Below, piece by piece: positions 1 through 29,784 of a stretch of DNA of 30,088 nt. Origin of the DNA: Macrostomum lignano. Lineage: Eukaryota. Position numbers and translations under genes: made by a program. Under the pieces are notes generated by a model, which was given only the letters and a program-made list of their open reading frames with translations, was not told where the DNA came from and searched no databases. The stretch lies in the NCBI GenBank assembly GCA_002269645.1, contig NIVC01004959.1, positions 1-30,088 on the forward strand. The letters run 5' to 3'. Positions within the stretch are counted from its first letter, which is position 1, and every line of letters starts with the position of its first letter.

Positions 1-617
1 TTGGCATTTTAATTCTACTTCAGAAATAGTATGAAGAGATCCCAACTTGTCAGATTCCAATTTTGCAACAAGGAAACCACTGGTTCGAAAAATGTAGATG
101 TCAGTCCCAACATTGGCTTCTACTGTCTGTATAAATGCTAAGCTCTTGTGCATACGCCGATAGTGTAGCAGTAGGAGTTGTATGCAGTCTGCCGCAATAA
201 TTTCCGTGGAAAGGCCATGGGCCTAGTGTGTGAACATAGCGCCTATGTAAATGCATTGGTGCACTCTTTACACTCTATTACCATATCTATAGATCTACGC
301 TCGTATCTATGCGTGTGCATATGGGAAAATTGCCTGGTGATTTGGATATAAGGACTGAAAATTTCCTACTGTGTGATTAACCCCATTAAATTAAATACTG
401 ATTTTGTTTAAACTCTACCTGTTGGAATTCTGTTAGAAACAAAAATTAACAGTACGCGCTGCCCATCCTGTGTGCATGAAGTTTGCATAACCTGCAAGTT
501 ATGCCGACTCGGTTGGTTAAAATCGTATGAGCACACTGCTCGTGCTGCACTGCAGCATCACCCGCTGGCTAATCTGCTACGAATGTAAATTCCCATACAG
601 CATTGGCGAAAAGTAGT

Positions 618-988
618 CTTTCCCTGATCAGTGCGAACAGTGCGCGGTTGCTACTTTGAACTTCTTAATATGCTCTCAAGTGCCGATTTCACTTCTATAG
701 AAGACTTGCTCTTTAATGCCCTCGCCCATGCGCACTTGGACAGCACATTAATGCATCTTAGAATATACCTGTAGCCATTATTATACTTGGAAAAAGGAAT
801 CATCTTCAGATTCAGCTCCCATTGATCATCAATGCTTTGAACTATAATTGGGTCGTTAGCCAGCTTTTCACAGCCTTTTCACTCACTCGGACAACCCTAT
901 TTGCGAACTTTCATAAATTTTTGCAGCCAGAAAAACGGACTTCTTGAACTTTAGGTAGATAAAATAGTTGCAATATTGATAGGATCAT
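618..988 (-). pseudogene. Polinton/Maverick-type retroviral-like (DDE) integrase, decayed N-terminal half
   Basis: Manual translation from ATG 988: MILSILQLFYLPKVQEVRFSGCKNL*KFANRVVRVSEKAVKSWLTTQ, then a frameshift/deletion at ~848, then IIVQSIDDQWELNLKMIPFSKYNNGYRYILRCINVLSKCAWARALKSKSSIEVKSALESILRSSK*QPRTVRTDQGK. This follows the Polinton integrase pattern as I recall it (YY.P...SFSG..KL; V..WL..Q; ID..WQ.DL....SK.N.GY.YIL..ID..SK.AWA..LK.K; P..LQTD.GK). Two stops, one frameshift, truncated after TDQGK. Confidence 0.85.
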
Positions 989-1017
989 AAGTTTGTCTCT
1001 ACAGGGGTTTTTAATGG

Positions 1018-1567
1018 TGCTGATTTCAAATTTAAGCTTCATTTTTTGTAGCTTAAAGCCAACCACCGGGGCATGGGAAATGGGGGGTTTTAGGGTGAGG
1101 AGAATCTTCATGAGAAATGATTTTATGTACCTAAACTTCAATAGAGGCATGGAGGTCTATAGAAGATTAGGTAGATAAATTTGCAGGCTGAGGGGCGGGG
1201 GTGGGGTGAAGGGAGGGGCTAACAACTACCAACAACAGGGCATGGGGAATGGGGGGGGTTTGGGGAGAATCGTCATGAGGATATATTTTATGTACCTAAA
1301 CTTCAATAGAGGCATGGGGGTCTATTGAAGATTAGGTAGATAAATTCCGAACCCGAGGGGGGAACCTGAGGGGGTGGCTGACAACCACCAACCACCAAGG
1401 CATGGGGAATGAGGCGTTTTAGGGTAGGGAGAATCTTCATAGGGATTGATTTTACGTACCTAAACTTCAATATAGGCATGGAGGTCTATTGTAGATTAGG
1501 TAGATTATTCGGAGACTGAGGGGGTCCAGGGGGGAATTGTAATAAAGCTTAAATTAAAAATTCAGCA
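1018..1567. repeat. ~550-bp insert: three diverged 160-170-bp tandem units bounded by ~27-bp imperfect inverted repeats
   Basis: GCATGGG anchors at 1071, 1240 and 1400 (periods 169 and 160), with a shared core TACCTAAACTTCAATA.AGGCATGG.GGTCTAT..AGATTAGGTAGAT. TGCTGATTTCAAATTTAAGCTTCATTT (from 1018) pairs with AATAAAGCTTAAATTAAAAATTCAGCA (1541-1567). No TSD seen. Confidence 0.7.
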
Positions 1568-1729
1568 AGTTAGGCCTATCGAACACCTCTATCGAACACC
1601 TTAAGATAATCCTCTGTACGGTCTTCCGGCAGGCGCTTGAGCCAGATGGTGCCGCTATTGATCACGAGTTTGTCAAAGCCAAGCTTGACGGTGATGTGCC
1701 GATTGATTGCCCAATACCGAGTGCACAAG

Positions 1730-1939
1730 CTAGCGTTTCAGCTGCTTCACCTTCTCCCATTGGTACGCATTGAGGTTAAAGCCAGGGATGCCTGCCCTGA
1801 GCCCGCTTTTAGAGGAGAAGAAACATCGGATTGCCATAAAGCGATGACCCTCGTACTCTTGCACTTGGACTTTGAAGCCTTCACAAAGATCAATCAATGT
1901 CTGTTTCTTTAAATGAGATGCTTCAAAAATTTTCTTTCC
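1730..1939 (-). pseudogene. PC4/SUB1-like ssDNA-binding domain fragment inside the Polinton remnant
   Basis: Stop-to-stop frame with no 5' ATG, so absent from the ORF track: GKKIFEASHLKKQTLIDLCEGFKVQVQEYEGHRFMAIRCFFSSKSGLRAGIPGFNLNAYQWEKVKQLKR*. It aligns by eye to the PC4 core (human [53 protein letters not shown]) through the pattern V.V..Y.G.....IR.......G....G..G..LN..QW..VK. Confidence 0.7.
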
Positions 1940-2385
1940 TCATAAAGCCTAAGTGGAGCAGGGTGAGTGCCAATAATGAGTTTCCTCCAGTAAATATATC
2001 AGTATGCATTTTTTATCCACCGGGCCCCCATGGTGCTGTAGTCTTTACAATAAATTTCTCTGGCTTACGACAAAGTCCACGCATTTAAACAAATCACACG
2101 TCCCCTAACCAGCCCCCACGATATTTCCATGGCTTTCCTGCGGTAGAGTTTTCCACGCAAAACATAAATTTTCTATATCTTTACGCATCAAACAGTTAAT
2201 GTATTCATAAACAGATTATTTTCTTACCGTTATTGAACAACAGTAATAAAACTGATTATATTGCCGCCAGTTTTAAAGTCTTTAATAAACCGCCATCGCA
2301 ACTACTCACCATGCATTAATTCCATGACATGCATTAGAACAACAGCGGCTATGTATTATATATAGCCGCTGTTGTTTATAATATA

Positions 2386-3044
2386 ACGGGTGTCCCAAAA
2401 AAGGTAACACTTTGTGCGCTCACTGTGAGTGAGCAGTTAGGCCTATAGCACAGTAATTTAACAGGTCCACAGTAAACATTTGTAAGTTTTTCCCACAAAC
2501 ATTTGGTTGCGAAAAATTGCTCCAGAGGCGAGTTATTGAGCACAGAAGTGTACGCTAGCTTTTCTGCCAAGCTTTGCCATACACAGCTGCCATAGACAAG
2601 CTTTTGCTTTAAAAATTTTAACGTTAGATCAGTCTCAGAGTCTATGCATGCTCTGTCATTTTTCTTACGCAAAAGATTGTCTATGGCCTCCGTCTATGGC
2701 AAAGCTTAGCAGAGAAGCTAGCGTACACTTCTGTGCTCAAAAAAATCAATAAAATTTTTTCAAATAAACTGGTATTTGACCACACACCGTCTCAGAGTAT
2801 ATGCTCCTTAAGATTTTTTAAAGCAAAAGCTTGTCTATGGCAGCTGTGTATGGCAAAGCTTGGCAGAAAAGCTAGCGTACACTTCTGTGCTCAATAACTC
2901 GCCTCTGGAGCAATTTTTCGCAACCAAATGTTTGTGGGAAAAACTTACAAATGTTTACTGTGGACCTGTTAAATTACTGTGCTATAGGCCTAACTGCTCA
3001 CTCACAGTGAGCGCACAAAGTGTTACCTTTTTTGGGACACCCGT
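2386..3044. mobile_element. Tc1/mariner-type MITE/foldback with ~230-bp near-perfect TIRs, TA-flanked, nested in the Polinton
   Basis: 2386-~2615 is the reverse complement of ~2815-3044 (ACGGGTGTCCCAAAAAAGGTAACAC... / ...GTGTTACCTTTTTTGGGACACCCGT). TA on both flanks. GGGTGTCCC-type termini are mariner-like. A third partial TIR copy lies at ~2679-2740. Confidence 0.85.
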
Positions 3045-4336
3045 TATAATATATATATACGCTCGTAATATATCTCATTAGGCCCCACGCTATTTCCGTG
3101 GCTTTCCCCGCGGCAGAGTTCTCCCATTCAATCACATAGACGCCCGTCTGATGCGGGTCTATGGCTTTTACACGGTAATTCCTGCGGCAGAGTGCATCAA
3201 TGGTATTTACATTAGCGCCATGTTCACACACTAGGCCCATGGCTTTTCCACGGAAATTCCTGCGGCAGAGTGAACACAACTCCTACTACTACTACTGCCG
3301 ATCCGTATCGAGCACGAACAATTTGCTTGCCCTGATACTTAGTTTTATAAACCAGCTGTGCGCAAGAAGTGCTCCACAGAATTGAAACAGCTAAGCAGGA
3401 CGAGACACGTGAATTTACTAAAAAAATCGTAACCTTAATCAGCTTCATTCATTCACGTGGTGGCTCTCCATTTAATATAATATTTTATTGCTTTTTCGGT
3501 TAATAATAGCTTTTATGTATCCTTATATACATAGGTAAATATCTATCCGCATAGATTAATATTGCTTCTGTATACTTATCACAACACCTAAATTTAGCTA
3601 TGTTATGTTTTTTATGTCTCGGATTTTATTAAAAAAGCTCTACCGATTCTTGAATTCGCACCACATTTTTTCACGTTTGGTAAAAATCTTTTCTCGTTAA
3701 AAATCTCGTCAGCGTGGGATTAAGCTGAATAATTTTTAGAACCGACAATAACCCAGATAGTAGCCAAAACTAAGGTCATTCTTTGGTCCTGATATCAGCC
3801 ATAGTTTTAACAAAACCAAGGAATAATTCAAATGTTAGCGGAGCTTAAACCAAGCATTAGGCCAGACAAAGAGCCGAGAATTTTTTCCAAAAAAACATAC
3901 CAGACATCAGCGCCACGCAATAATTCCTATATTGTATTTTAATACCATTGTGCTTCATTTTCATTGCTAACTGTAATGGTAGTGCTAATATGTGAAGCTT
4001 AATTAAATGGGAAATTCCGTAGAATTAAAGGGTAAGTGCTGGGATATCAAGAATTAAAGAGTAGACGCTGGTGCTGAGATGGTAAGCTTAAGGGGTAAGT
4101 GGGCCACCGAGGCTTGAAGTGGAGTGCTGAGACGTCAAGGTTCAGGAGAAACGCTGATATGCCAAGAAAAAAGAGATGAAGAGAACGCAAGCGACGCAGC
4201 CAATCAGCGATCAACAAAGCCAAATAGGAAACCAGACCAGTTTTTACCGATCTTACTGTTTTCAAAACAAATCCATATACTAAATGTCTTGATACTAAGC
4301 TAGTTATCAACCTGTTATTTTTCACTGCATCTACAG

Positions 4337-4771
4337 GTAGGAATTGATATACGTGACACAGTAAACTACAAGGAAGTCATGGCTCAGTACCGTCTCGGTC
4401 CTAACGGTGCAATTCTGACCTGTCTAAACCTATTCGCTACTAAGTTTGATCAAGTAATTAATTTGATTAACTCGCGCCGATCGAGTATAGAGTTTGTAAT
4501 AGTTGACACACCTGGTCAGATTGAAGCTTTTACCTGGTCAGCCTCTGGCTCAATCATTACTGAGGCACTGGCTGCACAGCTTCCTACTGTTCTCGTCTAC
4601 GTGATGGACACACCACGGAGCCACTCACCAGTTACGTTTATGTCAAATATGCTATACGCCTGCAGCATTCTATACAAGACACGCCTGCCGTTTGTCGTTG
4701 CGCTCAACAAGACGGACATTATATCTGCTGACTTTGCCATGGAGTGGATGACCAATTTCGAAGCCTTTCAG
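4337..4771 (+). CDS. GPN1: GPN-loop GTPase 1, internal coding exon
   Basis: (VG)[38 protein letters not shown]...[22 protein letters not shown]...[21 protein letters not shown]...NKTD...FEAFQ contains the GPN motif, the DTPGQIE G3 box and the NKTD G4 box. Acceptor is ctacAG at 4335-4336 (AG at 4339-4340 is an alternative); donor GT at 4772. The exon with the GxxGxGKT P-loop was not found and is probably upstream of the window. Confidence 0.95.
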
Positions 4772-5080
4772 GTATTTTAGCAGTCTTTTGTACTTTTTTA
4801 TTAAATGACGTTCTATTTATTACCCGTATGTATTTAGTTTACTCGTAGTAATTTGTTTCTTTGCGCTTTTTCCTTTTTAAAGCAAGTCGTATTTTTTTCA
4901 AAACTAAGTTGCGGTGGTTTTAAGTATAGCATTAAGTGATTTAGTTTCGAATTCGACTGAAGAAAGTCTGTGTACTACTCGTAGCAATATTGTAACGCCA
5001 CTTTGGAAGCCGTTACAATAAAACATATCCCCTTCATTAGCATTAGCAGGGTCCCTTGAAGGAATGGTATCTGCATGATA

Positions 5081-5922
5081 AAACAGTAACAGGGATCATT
5101 CGGGGAATGGCATCAGTTACTCTCAGAATGTTGAAACAGTAACAGGGTTCTTTCCAGGAATGGCATCAGTTACTCACAGAATGTTGAAACAGTAACAGGG
5201 TTCCCTCCGGGAATGGTATCAGTTACTCTCAGAATGTTGAAACAGTAACAGGGCTCCCTCCGGGAATGGTATCAGTTACTCTCAGAATGTTGAAACAGTA
5301 ACAGGGTTCCCTCGGGAATGGTATCAGTTACTCTCAGAATGTTGAAACAGTAACAGGGTTTCCTCCGGGAATGGCATCAGTTACTCTCAGAATGTTGAAA
5401 CAGTAACAGGGTTCCCTCCGGGAATGGTATCAGTTACTCTCATAATGTTTAAACAGTAACAGGGTTTCCTCCGGGAATGGTATCAGTTACTCTCAGAATG
5501 TTGAAACAGTAACAAGGTTCCTTCTGGGAATGGCATCAGTTACTCTCAGAATGTTGAAACAGTAACAGGGTTCCCTCGGGAATGGTATCAGTTACTCTCA
5601 GAATGTTGAAACAGTAACAGGGTTTCCTCCGGGAATGGCATCAGTTACTCTCAGAATGTTGAAACAGTAACAGGGTTTCCTCCGGGAATGGTATCAGTTA
5701 CTCTCATAATGTTGAAACAGTAACAAGGTTCCTTCTGGGAATGGCATCAGTTACTCTCATAATGTTTAAACAGTAACAGGGTTTCCTCCGGGAATGGTAT
5801 CAGTTACTCTCAGAATGTTGAAACAGTAACAAGGTTCCTTCTGGGAATGGCATCAGTTACTCTCAGAATGTTGAAACAGTAACAGGGTTCCCTCGGGAAT
5901 GGTATCAGTTACTCTCAGAATG
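5081..5922. repeat. Minisatellite, 16 units of 52-53 bp, in a GPN1 intron
   Basis: Consensus AAACAGTAACAGGGTTCCCTCCGGGAATGGTATCAGTTACTCTCAGAATGTTG, with unit starts at 5081, 5134, 5187 ... 5821, 5874 and degenerate edges on both sides. Confidence 0.97.
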
Positions 5923-6469
5923 ACAAAGTAAATTACCCTCGGAATCCCCCTCTCTGATTTTTACTTGATTCTTTTATAAATTAATGCATTAAAATAAACA
6001 TTATTTCAGCCTCAGTTGGCGGAGGAAAATAAGATAGAGTATTGAATTATTTGGTATACTTAAATTAGAATCGATTAATTGGAATAAAAAAACAGTAAGG
6101 CAAGGGTCAAAAGTGAGTGAACTCAGCAACAGTCGAAAGTTCCACCTGAACAAATCACGCGTAGTTAGAGAGATAGAAAGAAAAATAGACAGTGGAACTT
6201 TTGACTTGTTGGGTATATACTTATAACAAGCTGTTAAAACCCGCGGATTTTGAACCCGGGGAATTCCAATACCCGGAACTACTTTCGCATGTATTCTGAA
6301 ATCTAAGGCCATACACAAACAAAAACTTGTTAATAGTTAGTAGGATAGAGGTAGACATAAAATGGAGCACCTTCGTGTAAAATTAGGGTTTGAGACATTG
6401 TTGGCTGGGGTACTGTGCAGAATGTCAGGCAATGTCTGTCTGACTCTAAAACATATATTGCTAAACTCT

Positions 6470-8894: not shown

Positions 8895-9673
8895 CTGGAA
8901 TTACCTTCAATTACCTGGATTCAGAAGAAAAGGAGGGTTGGAGTTCGCGAATGAAGGAAGAGGCAAGATTGAAGAGCCAATCAGAAGAAGGCAATGAGGG
9001 AGAGGTAAAGAGAATAACAAGACTGAACTAGACGGAGAGGGAAGGTGAAAGTTGAACATGGACTCCTCAGAATTAAACCTCAAGGATCGGGTTACACAGC
9101 GGATTTAGATCAAAATCTAAAAACAGCTTCGTCATAATAGTTTTCTACCCATGATACGGACAAAATTTAAATTTAAAGTTCATCAAACACCCTCCTGCAG
9201 CCTGATAAACAGTTCCATCTCAGAATCAGACAGATCGCTCTAAACACATGGAACAGATTCCCTAATAAAATTAGACAGACGTAAAACAAAGTGCCAAGGA
9301 ATCCCATTTGCTCGCTGCGCACCCCAAGAAGCGTGACTCGAATTTCGCTTTTACAAGTTTAGTTAACCAAAATCTGTCATTAGGCGAGAATTTAAAGCAT
9401 TATTTAAAAAATGAGGGCTTCCACAGTCGGATTTGAGTCGGTATTACTAAATATGTTAGATTTTTTGCCAAAGATTGGGAAATGGCCCCAAATCAAAACG
9501 TGGGAGCATTGCCCCCCATAACCGTTTATTGGTTACCAATTACCAATATCTGTGCAATAATTTTATGAAGGCAAAATCACTACGTGAAGGTGTGACAGCC
9601 ACGTTTAAAACAATTCTTATACATGTCTTCCCGAACTTATTTTGCCTACAATTCTACCGCTTCAATTCTTCAG

Positions 9674-10165
9674 GAAGCCCTGCACCAGGAGCGAAGCTAT
9701 TTGAGTAACCTGACCCGGTCAATGAGCCTAGTTCTGGACAGCTTCTATGCTGGACTGCGCTGTGCTGGCGTTAGCGCTGCCACTGGTGATGGTATGCCGC
9801 TTTTCCTTAGCCGGGTGCGAGATGCTGTAAGCGAGTATTACACCGACTATGTGCCTATGTATGAAAAGCTGCGCACGGATGCGGCAGCCACTGCCTCAAA
9901 GTCTTCAAGTGTCAGTCAAGCCAGCAACGCTACGACTACGAGTGATTTGACATCTGCGCAACAGAAGTCAGACATGTTTATTGGAGCTCGGCCGGCATCC
10001 TATTCTGAAGACAGCGATGACGATGGCAACAATGCAAGCGCCTCGTCCTGTGAAGGAACCAACGAGCAGAGTGAATTAGAGTCCTTTCGGCGCTATGTCG
10101 AGCGTTTGCGGCTTGACAAAGTCAATGAAGGATGCAGTGGCGATGGTGACGGGCCATCAGACTGA
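9674..10165 (+). CDS. GPN1: GPN-loop GTPase 1, terminal coding exon
   Basis: Acceptor ttcttcAG at 9672-9673; the phase-0 join gives FEAFQ|[25 protein letters not shown] (human [30 protein letters not shown]). Acidic C-terminal tail, stop TGA 10163-10165. Intron 4772-9673 is 4.9 kb. Confidence 0.95.
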   Translation, partial: [163 protein letters not shown]

Positions 10166-11563: not shown

Positions 11564-11722
11564 GTAAGCAAGTGTACACTACAATTTTTTCTTTCAATGT
11601 CAGGTCGTCTTTTAGTCTCGCACATCCTATAAAAATTTGATAAGCATAGTCAAACGTTGCCGGATCGATTGCGCTGTAAGTATGCAGATTGTACATTTAT
11701 ATAACCCCAATTGCTTCCGCAG

Positions 11723-12161
11723 GGTGATACTGGCCTCTTGCTCGCCATACTTTCGCGCCATGTTCACCAGTGAGCTCAGTGAATCACGCCAGTCTCGGGT
11801 GCGCATGCACCAAATCGATAGCCGAGTTTTATCCGCACTTGTTGACTTTATTTATACCACTGAGATACACGTTACCGAGGACAATGTCCAGGCGTTGCTC
11901 CCAGCAGCAAATTTGTTACAACTGGCTGAAGTTCGAGAAGCGTGTTGTGATTTTCTACAGGGCCAGCTACACCCATCCAACTGCCTAGGCATTCTGCGCT
12001 TTGCCGATATGCACTCTTGCACAGAGCTGTACAATGCGGCTAGACAATATGCTGAGGAGTACTTTAGCAAGGTTATGCAACATGTAGAAGAGTTCCTTCA
12101 GCTTTCGTATGACCAGGTGCGACAGCTGGTCTGTTCTGACCGGCTCACATGTTCTGCCGAG
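11723..12161 (+). CDS. KLHL2/3: Kelch-like protein, exon encoding BTB and BACK domains
   Basis: Acceptor ccgcAG at 11721-11722 restores HR|VILASCSPYFRAMFTSELSESRQ...NVQALLPAANLLQL..VREACCDFL..QLHPSNCLGI..FADMHSC...CSDRLTCSAE. Donor GT at 12162. Confidence 0.95.
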
Positions 12162-13500
12162 GTTTGTATAGGCAAGATTCATCTGTACCATTTCGAACTT
12201 GAACGTACTGCGGAAAATGTCAGTTTTCCGAATGCGAGCGTACAGTGTCTTAAAAATGCTGTTAGGCTGTTGTTTAAAAATGATTGGAAATAGCCAATTG
12301 CGGGTACATAATTTTTTCTAATATGATTTGAAGGTAGTTGGAAATTAGCTCAAATATTTCCTTGTAATACTAACTAAGCTGATCGCTTCACACTAGCTCA
12401 TTGACTTTCTTTCTTCTCTGGTAGCCTATCTTTTTTGCTTAACGTATTTTTCACTTTGGTCCAAAAACGTAAAAAGTTACAGAAATTTCAGACAGCTTAA
12501 TATTTTGATAGAAGTACGGCTCGTACATTGTAACACGATTTAAATGTGTAAAAGCGTGCATTAAACGCTAAAAGCGTGCTTAAATAGCTCGTGATCGCGT
12601 ATTGGCTTGAGTCATTTAATGCACGATAAATATATATATATCGTGATTACAATACTACTCAATACTTGGTTTTTCTGACCTTAATTTCTATGGCAATCGT
12701 GACTAAGACATTTAAGCACTAAAAACCAAGTACTGAATCCTATATTCAGAAATCAAACAAAATTGTATTCGACAACACTCACCTAGTGTTTTAGTATCTG
12801 TGGGCAAAAGTGACTTCAATTTTGCTTTGACGATGGCGCCGCTAGTTTCCGTACTGTCTGCACTGTGCCAGCTGTGACGTCGTAATAGAGCCTACAGCAG
12901 ATTCTCAGCCTCCTGAAGCTGCAGGAAGTTTCATTCTGCATTGCCGCAGAAAAAGAGATTGCGAACGCAGTCCTTGGGCTTCAACGCTGCCCACCCATGT
13001 CTGGTGCGAAACCTCCCGTAGTGAATTCCCAAACGCCACTCGGGTGAACATTCAGAAATCTATCGGTGACATCAGATTGCAGGCATTGCAATACAAACAA
13101 GCAGTTAAGGAACTCGGGTGTTGCAAGGCGTCTGCTGCAGCCTTTTTATGCGAGAGCCTCCCTGGACCTTTCGGACAGCTCAGTGGGTTTACACCTGTTG
13201 GTTTTGTCACAAGCAGTCTTTTTAATAAAGAACTGGGTTCAAAGAACTCCATAGTTGCGAGACGAATTCTGATGCTTGGGTGAAATACCTTGGAGTTTAA
13301 AGGCTCGTGTGGCGAGCCGCCAGTTCTTACAGGAATTCAGTGTGCGCGTCTGTTGAATGGAGTGGACGTCTTGAAAATTATGCTGATGACAGGAGCATTC
13401 TGTGTTGTGCCAGTAGTCCTCCGCTGCTTTAGAAAGGTGAAGAGATCTTGCTTTGGCATGGAGACAACTTTGAGAGCACGATCAGGGCTTTTGAAGTTTA

Positions 13501-13781
13501 CTCAGCAACATTGAAAAGTCGCCACCCTTTGCCCCAGTGAGCATGCAGTGTCTTTCGACCAGCGTATCACCTGGCCAACCACTGATATTAAAAAATGCTC
13601 TAAAAACTATGAAAACCTGGCGGAAGCTTCAATCCATCCAATCTTCGCCCTCCGCTCTTCCCAATCCCTCCTCACCCAGCCCAACTGTGCGTCACGTGGC
13701 GCAAGTTGCGTCACTCAAAAGTCAATACTGAGCTGGAATTTACTGCATTCTCAAAGGTGGCGACTTTTTAATGTTGTCGAG
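13501..13781. mobile_element. 281-bp MITE with ~30-bp TIRs and TA flanks, in the kelch intron
   Basis: CTCAGCAACATTGAAAAGTCGCCACCCTTTG (13501-13531) versus CAAAGGTGGCGACTTTTTAATGTTGTCGAG (13752-13781). TA at 13499-13500 and 13782-13783. Confidence 0.7.
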
Positions 13782-14326
13782 TATAGCTTATCTAGACCTC
13801 GGAATCCGAGTCCCTCCTTAGGTTTATACAGTTGTAAGACTACGTTATAGTTTCTTTGTCTTCAAAGGACAATGGGCGAGCCGATGAAAGGGCTTGGAGA
13901 CAATTGGATGGATTAAATGTTTGAATTGGTGCATTATTGACTTCAATCGCATGTGAAGCAACAGATTCCATGTTGGCTTTGTTTTTTTATTGCTGTTCGA
14001 TTGCGTTAGTGCGTTGTCACCTACTGATTGCATTTGAAGCGAGACACTAAACGGCTGAAGTTCTGTAGGTAATTTGATCTAAAAGAATTTGTTCCACGTT
14101 TTCATAATCGTAGCTCGTATGACATCATACTTCATCTGGTGAGTTGCTGTGAGTTGCTAATATAATGTCTTAATTATTTGTTGAGACATTGCATTACATT
14201 TTCACTTGTATGTCTGTACTGGATTTTTTTTGGGTTACTTGTATCAATAGTATTTAAACAATAAAATGTCGAACATTGAGAAGTTTTATTTTTAATCACT
14301 GCATCTCATTTTTATCAAACACACAG

Positions 14327-15460
14327 GTCGAAGTGATTGAAGCCGTGTTCAAGTGGATCAAGCACGACCTCTCAGGCAGGCAACACCACGCTGACTCGCT
14401 TCTATCCCATGTGCGGTTCGCTCATCTTCCACAGGAATACCTATTACACATAGTCGAGGAGGAAGCACTGCTAAAAGAAAGCCTGCGGTGCAAGGATTTT
14501 CTGATAGAGGCGCTGCGCTATCACCTACTTAAGCCCGACCAGAAGGCTAAGTATCGTAGCGAACGAACCCGGCCGCGCAACCCTGTTGGCCTACCCAAGA
14601 TCCTGATTGTAATAGGTGGCCAGGCACCGAAGGCAATTCGTACGGTAGAGTGCTTCAGCTTTAAGGAGGAGCGCTGGTATCCGGTCTCCGAGATGCCTTC
14701 CCGTCGTTGCCGCTGTGGCGTAGCGTTAGTTGGCGGTCTAGTCTATGCCGTCGGTGGCTTCAACGGTTCTCTGCGTGTGCGCACCTGTGAAGTTTATGAT
14801 CCAGTCCGGGATGAATGGGCCACTGTGGCTAACATGGAAGCTCGCCGGTCCACTCTCGGCGTAGCATCGCTTGATGGTCTTGTGTATGCCGTCGGCGGCT
14901 TTGATGGCTCAAGTGGCCTTAACACGGCTGAAGTCTACAACCCAGCCGGTAATAAATGGAGCCTCATCGCTCCCATGTCCACACGGCGCAGCTCAGTCGG
15001 TGTAGGTATCCTTGCCGGCTGTCTCTACGCTGTCGGAGGCTACGATGGACAGAGTCGACAGTGTCTAGCCAGTGTAGAGCGCTATGATCCGGCTCAAGAC
15101 GCCTGGCACCCAGTGGCTGACATGACCTGCCGCCGCAGCGGCGCTGGCGTCGGCACCCTGGATGGCCAACTTTACGCTGTCGGCGGACACGACGGGCCAC
15201 TTGTTAGGAACAGTGTTGAGCGGCTAAATCCATGCTCCGGCTCTTGGTCTGTTGTGGCTAATATGCATCTTTGTCGGCGTAATGCTGGTGTTGTCGCCTA
15301 CAATGGTTTTTTATTTGTGGTTGGTGGTGATGACGGCTCCTCAAATCTGGGATCTGTGGAGCGGTACGATCCTCGAACGGACTCTTGGGTGCTTCTGCCC
15401 AATAGCATGATGACGGGCCGCAGTTATGCCGGTGTGGCAGTTATTGATAGTCCACTTTAA
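14327..15460 (+). CDS. KLHL2/3: Kelch-like protein, terminal exon (end of BACK plus six kelch repeats)
   Basis: Acceptor acacAG at 14325-14326 gives LTCSAE|VEVIEAVFKW. GGQAPKAIRTVEC, RRCRCGV, YAVGGFNGSLRVRT, RRSTLGVA, RRSSVGVG, RRSGAGVG, RRNAGV and the terminal SYAGVAVIDSPL* are characteristic of the KLHL2/KLHL3/Drosophila kelch group. AATAAA at 15479. The three exons total 1740 nt, giving 579 aa. Confidence 0.96.
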   Translation, partial: VEVIEAVFKWIKHDLSGRQHHADSLLSHVRFAHLPQEYLLHIVEEEALLKESLRCKDFLIEALRYHLLKPDQKAKYRSERTRPRNPVGLPKILIVIGGQAPKAIRTVECFSFKEERWYPVSEMPSRRCRCGVALVGGLVYAVGGFNGSLRVRTCEVYDPVRDEWATVANMEARRSTLGVASLDGLVYAVGGFDGSSGLNTAEVYNPAGNKWSLIAPMSTRRSSVGVGILAGCLYAVGGYDGQSRQCLASVERYDPAQDAWHPVADMTCRRSGAGVGTLDGQLYAVGGHDGPLVRNSVERLNPCSGSWSVVANMHLCRRNAGVVAYNGFLFVVGGDDGSSNLGSVERYDPRTDSWVLLPNSMMTGRSYAGVAVIDSPL

Positions 15461-20655: not shown

Positions 20656-21177
20656 GAGCATAGTATTGGTTTTGTCAGCCTAACTGAGAAAGAATAAAGC
20701 CATCCAAAGTGAGAATCCTGCCTACGCTGACTGCGAAGGGCCTGGCTGCGTGCAGCCTTAGTCTATGGGCCATAGACAATAAAGGACAAGCAAAGTGATA
20801 AAAAGCCATCCAATGTGAGAATCGATTGGTCTATGCGTCGTATTCTTTTATTTTTATACCTTCTGAGCCATATGACTAGCCAATAGCTTGAACGGAATAA
20901 CGGAAACAGGAACACACTGGATGATGTCTTTTTAAAATTTTGCTTGTCCTTTATAGTCTATGGCTCATAGAATAGGCTGGACGCAGCTAGGCCCTTCGTA
21001 TTCAGCGTAGGCAGGATTCTCACATTGGATGGCTTTTTATCACTTTGCTTATCCTTTATAGTCTATGGCCCATAGACTAAGGCTGCACGCAGCCAGGCCC
21101 TTCGCAGTCAGCGTAGGCAGGATTCTCACTTTGGATGGCTTTATTCTCAGTTAGGCTGACAAAACCTATACCAGCTC
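20656..21177. mobile_element. Foldback/MITE with ~155-165-bp TIRs built from ~107-bp internal repeats
   Basis: ~20668-20823 is a near-perfect reverse complement of ~21015-21166. The right arm carries an extra diverged unit (~20940-21015 onward). No coding signal. Confidence 0.85.
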
Positions 21178-26084: not shown

Positions 26085-27326
26085 TCTTAAATATAAAAGT
26101 TTTTCTGAAATATTGCATTTGAAAAATTTCAGATTTGCCGCTCATTAAGACAAGTGGCCCTTGTACTGTACTGTACCCTTGTAAGTAAGATGGTTAGATG
26201 AGTGAATGGTAAAAAGGTAACAATACAACCACATTCCTAATCCTAAAAACAGGAGATGCAGACAGTTTGGAAATTGGTTTTAAAATTATTAGTACATGTC
26301 GTAAACACTGAACACAGGATGCAGCTATAAGCATAATACTATATATAGCCAGATATGCTAATACTGCTCCTGTTGTACTTTTTTCCAATTTACCACAATG
26401 TGGGAAAAGCTAAATTGGCCTCCCAGCATATAAGTGCATATTGTCAAATAGTTTTAAATTATTTTTACATTAGCTCAAGTGCAATGCCTTCAATTAAAGC
26501 TTTAAATAATTACTACAAGCATATCTATGCACTTAGTTTCAGCCATTTTGTGATCGCGTTTTTATAGAAATGTCACTGATTTGTAGATCAAATTAAAAAA
26601 TACAATAAGTGCCATATAACTAAGAGCCATACATTCAAGGATTTTCCAAAAGAGCTAGGTAACTTGTTTATAGTTGACATGTTTTGCTTCAAAACTGTAA
26701 AAATGTTGCTTTTGAATAATTTTAATAAAAAGTTTATGCTATAGTGATTTTCTTTTTCATTTTCTTACTTATAGCTATTTTACAATGTTTTATTTTCTTC
26801 CAAATTGCAATTCTTCTGTTACCAATAAAATATTTGTTGCTGTCTGGTTTTATTCAAGAGACCATGCACTGTAACAGTGGGAATACCAAGCAATTTTTCC
26901 ACCTATCAAACTACCAAGGAGGGAGGGATAAATTTTGACAATTTTTGCTTTGCTAGAATGAAGCAATGTAGGCATACAAAATTCAAGAGCACAGGTAAAC
27001 TTTCTGTTGCACATCTTAAACAAGAATACAATAGTCACCCTCCAAACTATTTAACAATTCAACAATTCTGCCAAGTTGGATTTTTTCCATAAAAGCTAAC
27101 GTGTTGAATATAGCCATTGCACCAATTAGCATTACACCTCTATGCAGCCTTGCCAAGCCTACAAATTTCCTCAACACATTGACTATATATGCCTGAACCA
27201 GTTCTGACTTTGTTGGTCACTGGCTTTTACCTAGGTAGAGCTTCTAGAACTTTAGCAGGTAATACTAGTTAACTATAGACACACTTTTGCAAATTTCTGA
27301 AAAAGCTTTACTAACCTAAAGCTTTC

Positions 27327-29784
<2,458 letters not shown>

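Follow-up and report, generated by a model that had tools for sequence, protein, structure and literature searches.

A Two-Unit PC4-Like Protein Carried by Polintons of Macrostomum lignano, a Candidate Single-Stranded DNA-Binding Replication Protein

Introduction

Polintons are thought to replicate by protein-primed strand displacement. In adenovirus and in phi29, the ssDNA job on the displaced strand is done by DBP and p5, respectively. An earlier note on the DNA studied here, made from the sequence alone, remarked that an SSB (single-stranded DNA-binding protein) does not figure among the usual core Polinton genes, and the published core gene sets, in the parts of those sources examined, do name none; adenoviruses and protein-primed phages have one. 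The same note read a minus-strand frame with a PC4 signature as Polinton cargo, serving either as an SSB for replication or as a transcription cofactor. The frame is in contig NIVC01004959.1 of Macrostomum lignano (assembly GCA_002269645.1), and the whole stretch of 30,088 nucleotides is called the window below. The locus raises the question of whether a PC4-family gene belongs to Polintons, and, if so, what its product does for them.

The Polinton Remnant in the Window

The PC4-like frame sits in a Polinton remnant of 3,135 bp (162–3296), internally deleted and oriented on the minus strand. The terminal inverted repeat (TIR) at the element's right end, 162–267, aligns locally with the reverse complement of the one at its left end, 3189–3296, which has an AGT-repeat terminus. 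The copies of a 6-bp target site duplication (TSD) on either side, 156–161 and 3297–3302, are identical. TIRs with AGT-repeat ends and a 6-bp TSD, by which a Polinton is recognized, are thus both present, and the frame lies within the TIRs as the earlier note had it. Full-length relatives encode a protein-primed polymerase (pPolB; DNA_pol_B_2), an integrase with rve and Chromo domains, and an adenain protease (Peptidase_C5); the window copy has only integrase fragments. There are two of these, internally deleted and truncated, at 590–934 on the minus strand, with 87% and 84% nucleotide identity to open-frame integrases that match rve and Chromo in Pfam. The PC4 frame is co-oriented with them and lies to their 5' side, again as first described.

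The rest of the remnant is mostly decayed or non-coding. A piece of a Cys-rich right-end gene lies at 412–588 on the plus strand, with 455–522 at 75% nucleotide identity to the gene on contig C862. In an intact relative, a motif scan finds pairs of CxxC together with an LxCxE motif; judged by these, it is "Oncoid"-like by the definition of Starrett 2021 (PMC8502044). Three non-coding repeats of ~165 bp (1059–1505) separate the integrase and PC4 remnants; outside two sister copies, they have short partial matches at only two other fetched loci. Those sister copies share the flanks of the remnant and are found on C1387 (99.8% identical) and C3424 (92–97%). A palindromic MITE-like insertion at 2377–3053, with perfect arms of 239 bp and AT-rich ends, is missing from the copy on C3424 and is younger than the Polinton remnant.

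The PC4 frame reported at 1730–1939 is present, and its codons from 1733 to 1939 match the Pfam PC4 family (PF02229) at E = 5e-4 with 20 bits, under the 25-bit cut-off. Chance is excluded because the frame has 136 matches in its own genome, at 134 distinct places, many in open frames of ~240–265 codons. Alignment to open-frame copies gives the layout of the window copy. PC4-like unit 1 covers 1733–1894 on the minus strand, with its start codon lost, and the aligned part is 89% identical to the copy on contig C130. Over its first 15 codons, the frame as reported corresponds to the 5' non-coding region of the relatives, homologous coding beginning at 1894. Upstream, 1895–2032 (minus strand) is homologous to the relatives' non-coding region, with the TATA-bearing segment deleted. 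Downstream, both DNA and protein alignments place the end of unit 1 and the first half of unit 2 at 1604–1732 on the same strand. The lesions are a premature stop at 1730–1732, a frameshift near 1711–1717 and a truncation near 1604. A second frame at 1576–1737 had been taken for the possible start of another PC4 repeat. It has no PC4 match in Pfam; the tandem unit stands, but not as a separate frame or gene. Two separate PC4 genes are ruled out, as the alignments show a single gene split by the stop and the frameshift. Since the start codon and the TATA box are lost and the gene is cut near 1604, the window copy is a pseudogene, an ordinary dead remnant.

Two PC4-Like Units in the Product of the Intact Gene

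Open-frame relatives of the window gene encode one protein of 165–258 aa with two PC4-like units, here called twin-PC4. Three Polinton lineages in the M. lignano genome carry the gene. The open frames of lineage 1 (240–258 aa) consist of unit 1 and unit 2, each of ~60 aa, with an acidic stretch and an NLS-like basic patch after them. The acidic tail is present in lineages 1 and 2, and the basic patch in all three. The C-terminal 60 residues of the lineage-1 protein (L031:1130–1855) contain a conserved DPxWY block, a basic patch and an LRRQ motif; the lineage-2 tail differs in being Trp-rich, in a form common to P0038 and L080.

Four of five distinct lineage-1 open-frame copies scanned pass the Pfam PC4 cut-off of 25 bits (26.8–37 bits), and the fifth scores 22.5. 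With these PF02229 matches inside Polinton elements, the claim of a PC4-family protein as Polinton cargo is upheld. Under the cut-off, along with the window fragment, are lineage 2 (23 bits) and lineage 3 (12.6 bits); the lineage-3 version is found by a profile of the twin-PC4 family at an E of about 1e-26 (5e-27). Unit 1 matches cellular PC4 by profile at E = 1.5e-5. Unit 2 is weakly similar to PC4 by sequence alone (profile–profile P = 0.0009, probability 23%), and a profile search with it did not detect canonical PC4. In a language-model search with unit 2 alone, the nearest clusters were PC4-bearing (0.87–0.90). Together with the structural comparisons given below, these results back the second half of the earlier suggestion, that the PC4 gene is possibly a tandem one.

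Both units are under purifying selection. Among five subfamily representatives, dN/dS was 0.10–0.18 for unit 1, where it was computable in 2 of 10 pairs, and 0.03–0.27 for unit 2 (8 of 10 pairs). Synonymous sites are near saturation among these representatives, and both units have fewer non-synonymous differences than the tail.

Predicted Fold and DNA-Contact Residues

Two AlphaFold2 (AF2) models were made, both of relatives of the window gene and both from shallow alignments. One natural copy (21-row alignment) gave a pLDDT of 92 and a pTM of 0.83, and DSSP assigned to the model four strands and a helix, twice, within one compact domain. A metagenomic homologue, 29% identical, gave the same layout (pLDDT 82, 6-row alignment). 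Unit 1 of the model superimposes on human PC4 (6ycs) with an rmsd of 1.3 Å over 64 residues, including the four-strand sheet and the kinked helix. When the whole domain is compared, the best match is to repeats I–II of Pur-alpha (3k44; Z 10.3, rmsd 4.0, 117 aa, residues 1–128), followed by MRP1/2 (2gia, Z 7.8) and Whirly (1l3a, Z 6.5) over 114–117 residues, although a Z under 8 may reflect a common arrangement only. The PC4/Whirly-like fold that the earlier note had expected from structure prediction is thus borne out on an open-frame relative. The two units are predicted to fold into a single-chain intramolecular pseudo-dimer, like Pur-alpha repeats I–II.

In the scheme of PMC7549692, as far as that text was available, a type I PC4-like domain has two repeats in one chain. 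Instead of the homodimer of single units (type II), both models pair the two units of one chain, and by these models twin-PC4 is a predicted type I single-chain domain made of PC4-type sequence. It shares with Pur-alpha I–II, MRP1/2 and Whirly the two four-strand-plus-helix repeats per chain, but structural identity to these proteins is only 7–10%, and none of the listed matches of twin-PC4 copies is to a PUR or Whirly family in Pfam or to such a PDB sequence. Since the twin-PC4 sequence is PC4-derived, the single-chain layout that it has in common with Pur-alpha, MRP and Whirly is probably convergent.

Unit 1 resembles cellular PC4/Sub1 (PF02229; 1pcf, 4usg, 6ycs) and the phage T5 homologue (4bg7) by both profile and fold and keeps R86, G99 and the aromatic at position 89. 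The differences are in the architecture. Cellular PC4 is a homodimer, whereas twin-PC4 would be two unequal units in one chain, and PG-x-PG stands in it where cellular PC4 has PGRKG or PGKKG. A serine/acidic and lysine-rich N-terminal regulatory region is a feature of animal PC4. It is present in host PC4 and absent from the element proteins, which begin at the first strand and have a C-terminal acidic tail instead. Twin-PC4 is PC4-like, but because it departs from PC4 both in this region and in the predicted homodimer, we regard it as a variant and not as a plain PC4 member.

The ssDNA contacts of PC4 are F77, W89, R70, R86, R100 and K101, and Y in the position of W89 keeps ssDNA affinity in PC4 and MoSub1 (PMC4350104, available in part). 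These residues are only partly kept in twin-PC4, as judged over both units in 21 rows for whose selection a profile from the same family was used. In unit 1, R86 is in 21/21 rows, W89 is represented by Y or F in 21/21, G99 is in 21/21, and F77 is aromatic in 13/21; R70 is in 0/21, R100 in 1/21 and K101 in 0/21, its place being taken by Pro in all 21. In unit 2, where the register comes from a weak alignment and is uncertain, the R70 equivalent is K or R in 21/21, the R100 equivalent is R in 19/21, and both stacking aromatics are absent. This suggests an asymmetric DNA-binding surface, in which unit 1 would supply the stacking aromatics and R86, and unit 2 the basic residues equivalent to R70 and R100.

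Three Carrier Lineages

The gene order of lineage 1 is TIR, twin-PC4, integrase, putative minor and major capsid proteins, protease, putative ATPase, two unassigned frames and a TATA-binding protein (TBP) homologue, followed on the other strand by pPolB and the Cys-rich gene. The capsid names are given by size and position to frames of 427 and 269 aa that have no Pfam match. The putative ATPase is likewise named by size and position, being a 217-aa frame with weak P-loop matches only. The frame upstream of TBP also has no Pfam match; it may be DEDD/MAEL-like. The integrase is directly downstream of twin-PC4 at 20 of 23 lineage-1 loci and, genome-wide, at no fewer than 107 of 134 lineage-1 places, with 150 of 1,743 integrase candidates scored. 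TBP is present at 13 of the 23 loci, the others being cut or deleted.

In lineage 2, the integrase is 56% identical to that of lineage 1 and twin-PC4 29% identical. All four elements read have twin-PC4 at the opposite end of the element, far from the integrase, and with TBP; 46 rows of the genome search were assigned to this lineage. The two-repeat TBP homologue (PF00352, E = 1e-22) is thus found in lineages 1 and 2. The examples at L031:8519–9082 and L072:3098–3694 are 35% identical between the lineages, and a CTTAAGAA box stands before several genes.

Lineage 3 was reached by a polymerase search. It consists of TIR elements of 8.8–10.4 kb with 6-bp TSDs, in which a twin-PC4 gene, 31–32% identical, is head-to-head with pPolB. 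In the complete elements that carry this pair, tblastn (1e-4) gave no match to integrase, major or minor capsid protein, ATPase, protease or TBP, and neither did a TBP profile. Among eight complete elements with TIRs and 6-bp TSDs, seven carry the head-to-head pair; a PC4 match had led to five of these, and two of the TSDs are low-complexity. The positives are not independent, because six of the seven, or their neighbours, were either picked by PC4 or are members of a single near-identical family. Twin-PC4 is missing from the eighth complete element, C1945, which measures 15 kb and contains insertions. A genome-wide count is unaffected by choosing elements through PC4: twin-PC4 is head-to-head with pPolB within 8 kb at 34 or more of 57 lineage-3 polymerase places, the figure being a lower bound, and 23 are without a head-to-head match.

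Lineage-3 contigs include C173, C491, C811, C211, C493, C986 and C1263 (L096–L100, L103–L110, L117–L118). The ends are ACT...AGT, the reverse of lineage 1, and the elements contain pPolB, twin-PC4 and no more than two further frames. The polymerase (e.g., L097:2912–7152) is in three to five frames, with recurring splits after pyrimidine tracts ending in AG, and these splits are probably introns. For vertebrate Mavericks, no introns are reported in the part of PMC8097293 covered. A variant of twin-PC4 that is more distant, with 38% identity to lineage 3, is present in four copies at C1753:139521–208702, with no polymerase within the 20 kb read.

The earlier note had the PC4 gene upstream of the integrase. 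As a general pattern this fails, with adjacency in one of three lineages only. We rejected an integrase link as a rule, the gene being far away in lineage 2 and lineage 3 having no detected integrase. Nor do all Polintons of this genome carry twin-PC4. A further full-length lineage of 16–17 kb (C2506, C506 and C3469; L081–L089), with other genes in the capsid region, lacks twin-PC4 as well as TBP; C2285 contains a TBP-like frame, a weak one, and in its sampled part no PC4 gene; and no twin-PC4 gene was detected in C2757. From the counts across lineages, twin-PC4 is frequent without being universal, and its presence tracks the polymerase better than the integrase or TBP.

Two Promoter Classes

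In all three lineages, twin-PC4 lies close to one end of the element, and the sequence TATATAA, a canonical TATA box, stands 46–112 nt upstream of its start, in 17 of 17 copies, which are not independent of one another. Upstream of 10 integrases this sequence is found in none, and among 178 background windows in 2; the integrase upstream regions have CTTAARAA instead (10 of 10). For the box CTTAAGAA, each of three lineage-1 elements has five to six occurrences, compared with 0.4–0.8 in shuffles. Two lineage-2 elements have one each, and no exact box was found in two lineage-3 elements scanned. In lineage 2, pPolB and twin-PC4 start behind the same duplicated TATA-bearing sequence, one at each end of the element. 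From these motifs, we infer an early, host-driven promoter class that would include twin-PC4, and a later class; the two classes point to an early/late programme. None of the data sets containing the sequence is listed as RNA. Contigs of four runs guessed to be RNA covered promoters and intergenic stretches alike. Because these may be DNA and the coverage is even, they say nothing on expression.

Homologues, Host SUB1 and Prior Labels

The host SUB1 gene, found in three places (75 bits), encodes a protein with a single unit and an N-terminus that is acidic and rich in lysine. Unit 1 of twin-PC4 is 28–37% identical to the host PC4 core (16–21 identities in 57–59 positions). In a tree of 69 rows and 62 columns, which is a short alignment with an unsettled bootstrap, made after a score filter had removed 62 of 131 candidate rows and with the L080 row also outside, a branch with 99/94 support parts 42 cellular-type rows, including the host, from 27 others, and those 27 hold all 23 twin-type rows. 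In the comparison with host SUB1 that the note had called for, the host gene falls with the cellular PC4s, and twin-PC4 is not host SUB1. A recent capture of host SUB1 was rejected on the same tree separation and on the single-unit host gene.

Searching 1.84 billion representatives with a profile yielded 119 matches, and the 16 that were aligned have the two-unit layout and PG-x-PG. The 20 library homologues looked up all lie on contigs of at most 6.5 kb and have no useful name. The nearest atlas clusters are PC4-bearing, mostly mollusc and one viral. A word-based search for homologues gave one protein. A scan of viral contigs for related loci and a first metagenome scan found no relative, phage records held no twin-PC4 match, and a second metagenome scan found one contig of 1.5 kb (L080) with no informative neighbour.

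The best viral fold match over both units is MOSUB of a Branchiostoma lancelet adintovirus (A0A5H3CIS2; TM 0.72, E = 2.9e-5), which was also the top viral match of the second model. MOSUB of a Bos-associated insect adintovirus (A0A5H3CT48) matched with TM 0.62 and E = 0.05. The lengths are similar (203 and 197 aa), and MOSUB is adjacent to an ITR in the map text; sequence identity to twin-PC4, however, is only 19% (lancelet) and 9% (insect). From modelled fold and context, we infer that twin-PC4 and adintovirus MOSUB may be orthologues.

The association of PC4 with Polintons is already known as a label, "MOSUB", which stands in the records of two adintovirus proteins and in a supplementary map. 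The label is printed beside an ITR in Supplementary Figure S2 of Starrett et al. 2021 (PMC8502044). MOSUB, PC4 and Sub1 are absent from the main text of that paper and from the preprint, as far as these were available, and the supplement may mention them further; the paper and the preprint each mention TBP in a figure legend. The parts covered of PMC11071308, PMC11071296, PMC11131425, PMC8097293 and 10.1101/2023.08.22.554363 showed no PC4 or SSB gene. A search of full-text literature, whose coverage excludes subscription papers and Repbase, found no paper discussing PC4 or MOSUB in Polintons. No published account was found of the single-chain architecture, the promoter class or the retention in polymerase-only elements.

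What the Protein May Do

Our main reading is that twin-PC4 is the Polinton's ssDNA-binding replication aid, at a probability of roughly 55%. Between the two functions that the earlier note offered, the SSB is the likelier, since elements with no detected TBP, capsid or integrase gene still keep twin-PC4 together with the polymerase. Host RNA polymerase II would transcribe twin-PC4 early, together with the polymerase, and the protein would enter the nucleus, where it could bind or melt ssDNA at the terminal origins and bind the strand that protein-primed synthesis displaces. As a predicted single-chain domain, it would not have to pair with host PC4. Viruses with protein-primed replication bring SSBs of their own, often unusual ones (10.1101/2021.03.25.437074). 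According to the same source, adenovirus DBP, PRD1 P12/P19, phi29 p5 and Bam35 P2 coat displaced ssDNA and aid processive synthesis; this role was tested for them and would be shared by twin-PC4, but their folds are unrelated to it. Counting against the replication reading, several of the PC4 DNA contacts are missing, twin-PC4 is not present in every element or lineage, and lineage-3 elements might have arisen by deletion and kept whatever genes lie close to their ends.

The acidic tail and the early promoter also fit a transactivator, and an early transcription cofactor, while unlikely in our judgement, deserves to be weighed. Such a cofactor would stabilize the open promoter or bridge TBP/TFIIB, as cellular PC4/Sub1 does, and with the element's own TBP would turn on the genes with a CTTAAGAA box (integrase, capsid, ATPase). 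It would account for the TBP homologue in lineages 1 and 2 (13/23 loci and 4/4 elements, respectively) and for two promoter classes with CTTAAGAA enriched over shuffles in lineage 1, and the terminal position, acidic tail and lost basic DNA-contact residues fit a role in protein interaction. However, twin-PC4 is kept in lineage 3 without a TBP gene and, in the two elements scanned, without the exact box; it is missing the N-terminal region of host PC4; and C2285 shows the opposite combination, a weak TBP-like frame with no PC4 gene in the part sampled.

We are more doubtful of a non-replicative role, whether in end or hairpin protection of excised DNA, as an aid to integration or repair, in Pur-alpha-like RNA binding, or as a decoy for host PC4 partners. 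Such a role draws on the closest whole-domain folds, Pur-alpha, MRP1/2 and Whirly, which bind RNA and ssDNA (PMC7549692, in the part available), and on the integrase directly downstream at at least 107 of the 134 lineage-1 places, but that adjacency is lineage-specific, twin-PC4 persists without any integrase gene, and its promoter class differs from that of the integrase. Lastly, a captured host SUB1 copy or a neutral passenger is very improbable: the 28–37% identity of unit 1 to the host core would suit capture, but the host gene is single-unit and across the 99/94 branch from all twin-type rows, homologues are present in lancelet and insect adintoviruses, and both units are conserved while synonymous sites are near saturation.

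Returning to twin-PC4 as the replication SSB, a more tentative proposal, which we rate at a little under even odds, goes further. Twin-PC4 ("MOSUB") would be the unrecognized SSB of a large share of animal Polintons, an asymmetric single-chain PC4 pseudo-dimer with an independently reached Pur-alpha architecture. Together with the intron-split, protein-primed polymerase, it would make up all the replication machinery of a self-copying element of 9–10 kb that has neither capsid nor integrase and borrows integration from helper Polintons. The polymerase-plus-PC4 elements may be an undescribed satellite form. As a small candidate, predicted to be well folded and available in three divergent natural versions, twin-PC4 brings the SSB gap within reach of ordinary protein biochemistry.

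Other Features of the Window

The remainder of the window contains host genes and repeats. A host GPN-loop GTPase exon lies at 4304–4780 (ATP_bind_1, E = 7e-51), with a probable further exon at 9596–10162. The features that follow were named by inspection of the sequence. Probable exons of a host BTB-kelch gene with 141-bp repeats are at 11616–15457, a 53-bp tandem array is at 4987–5973, another palindromic MITE-like element is at 20691–21147, and a LINE-like reverse-transcriptase frame of 597 codons is at 27301–29091.
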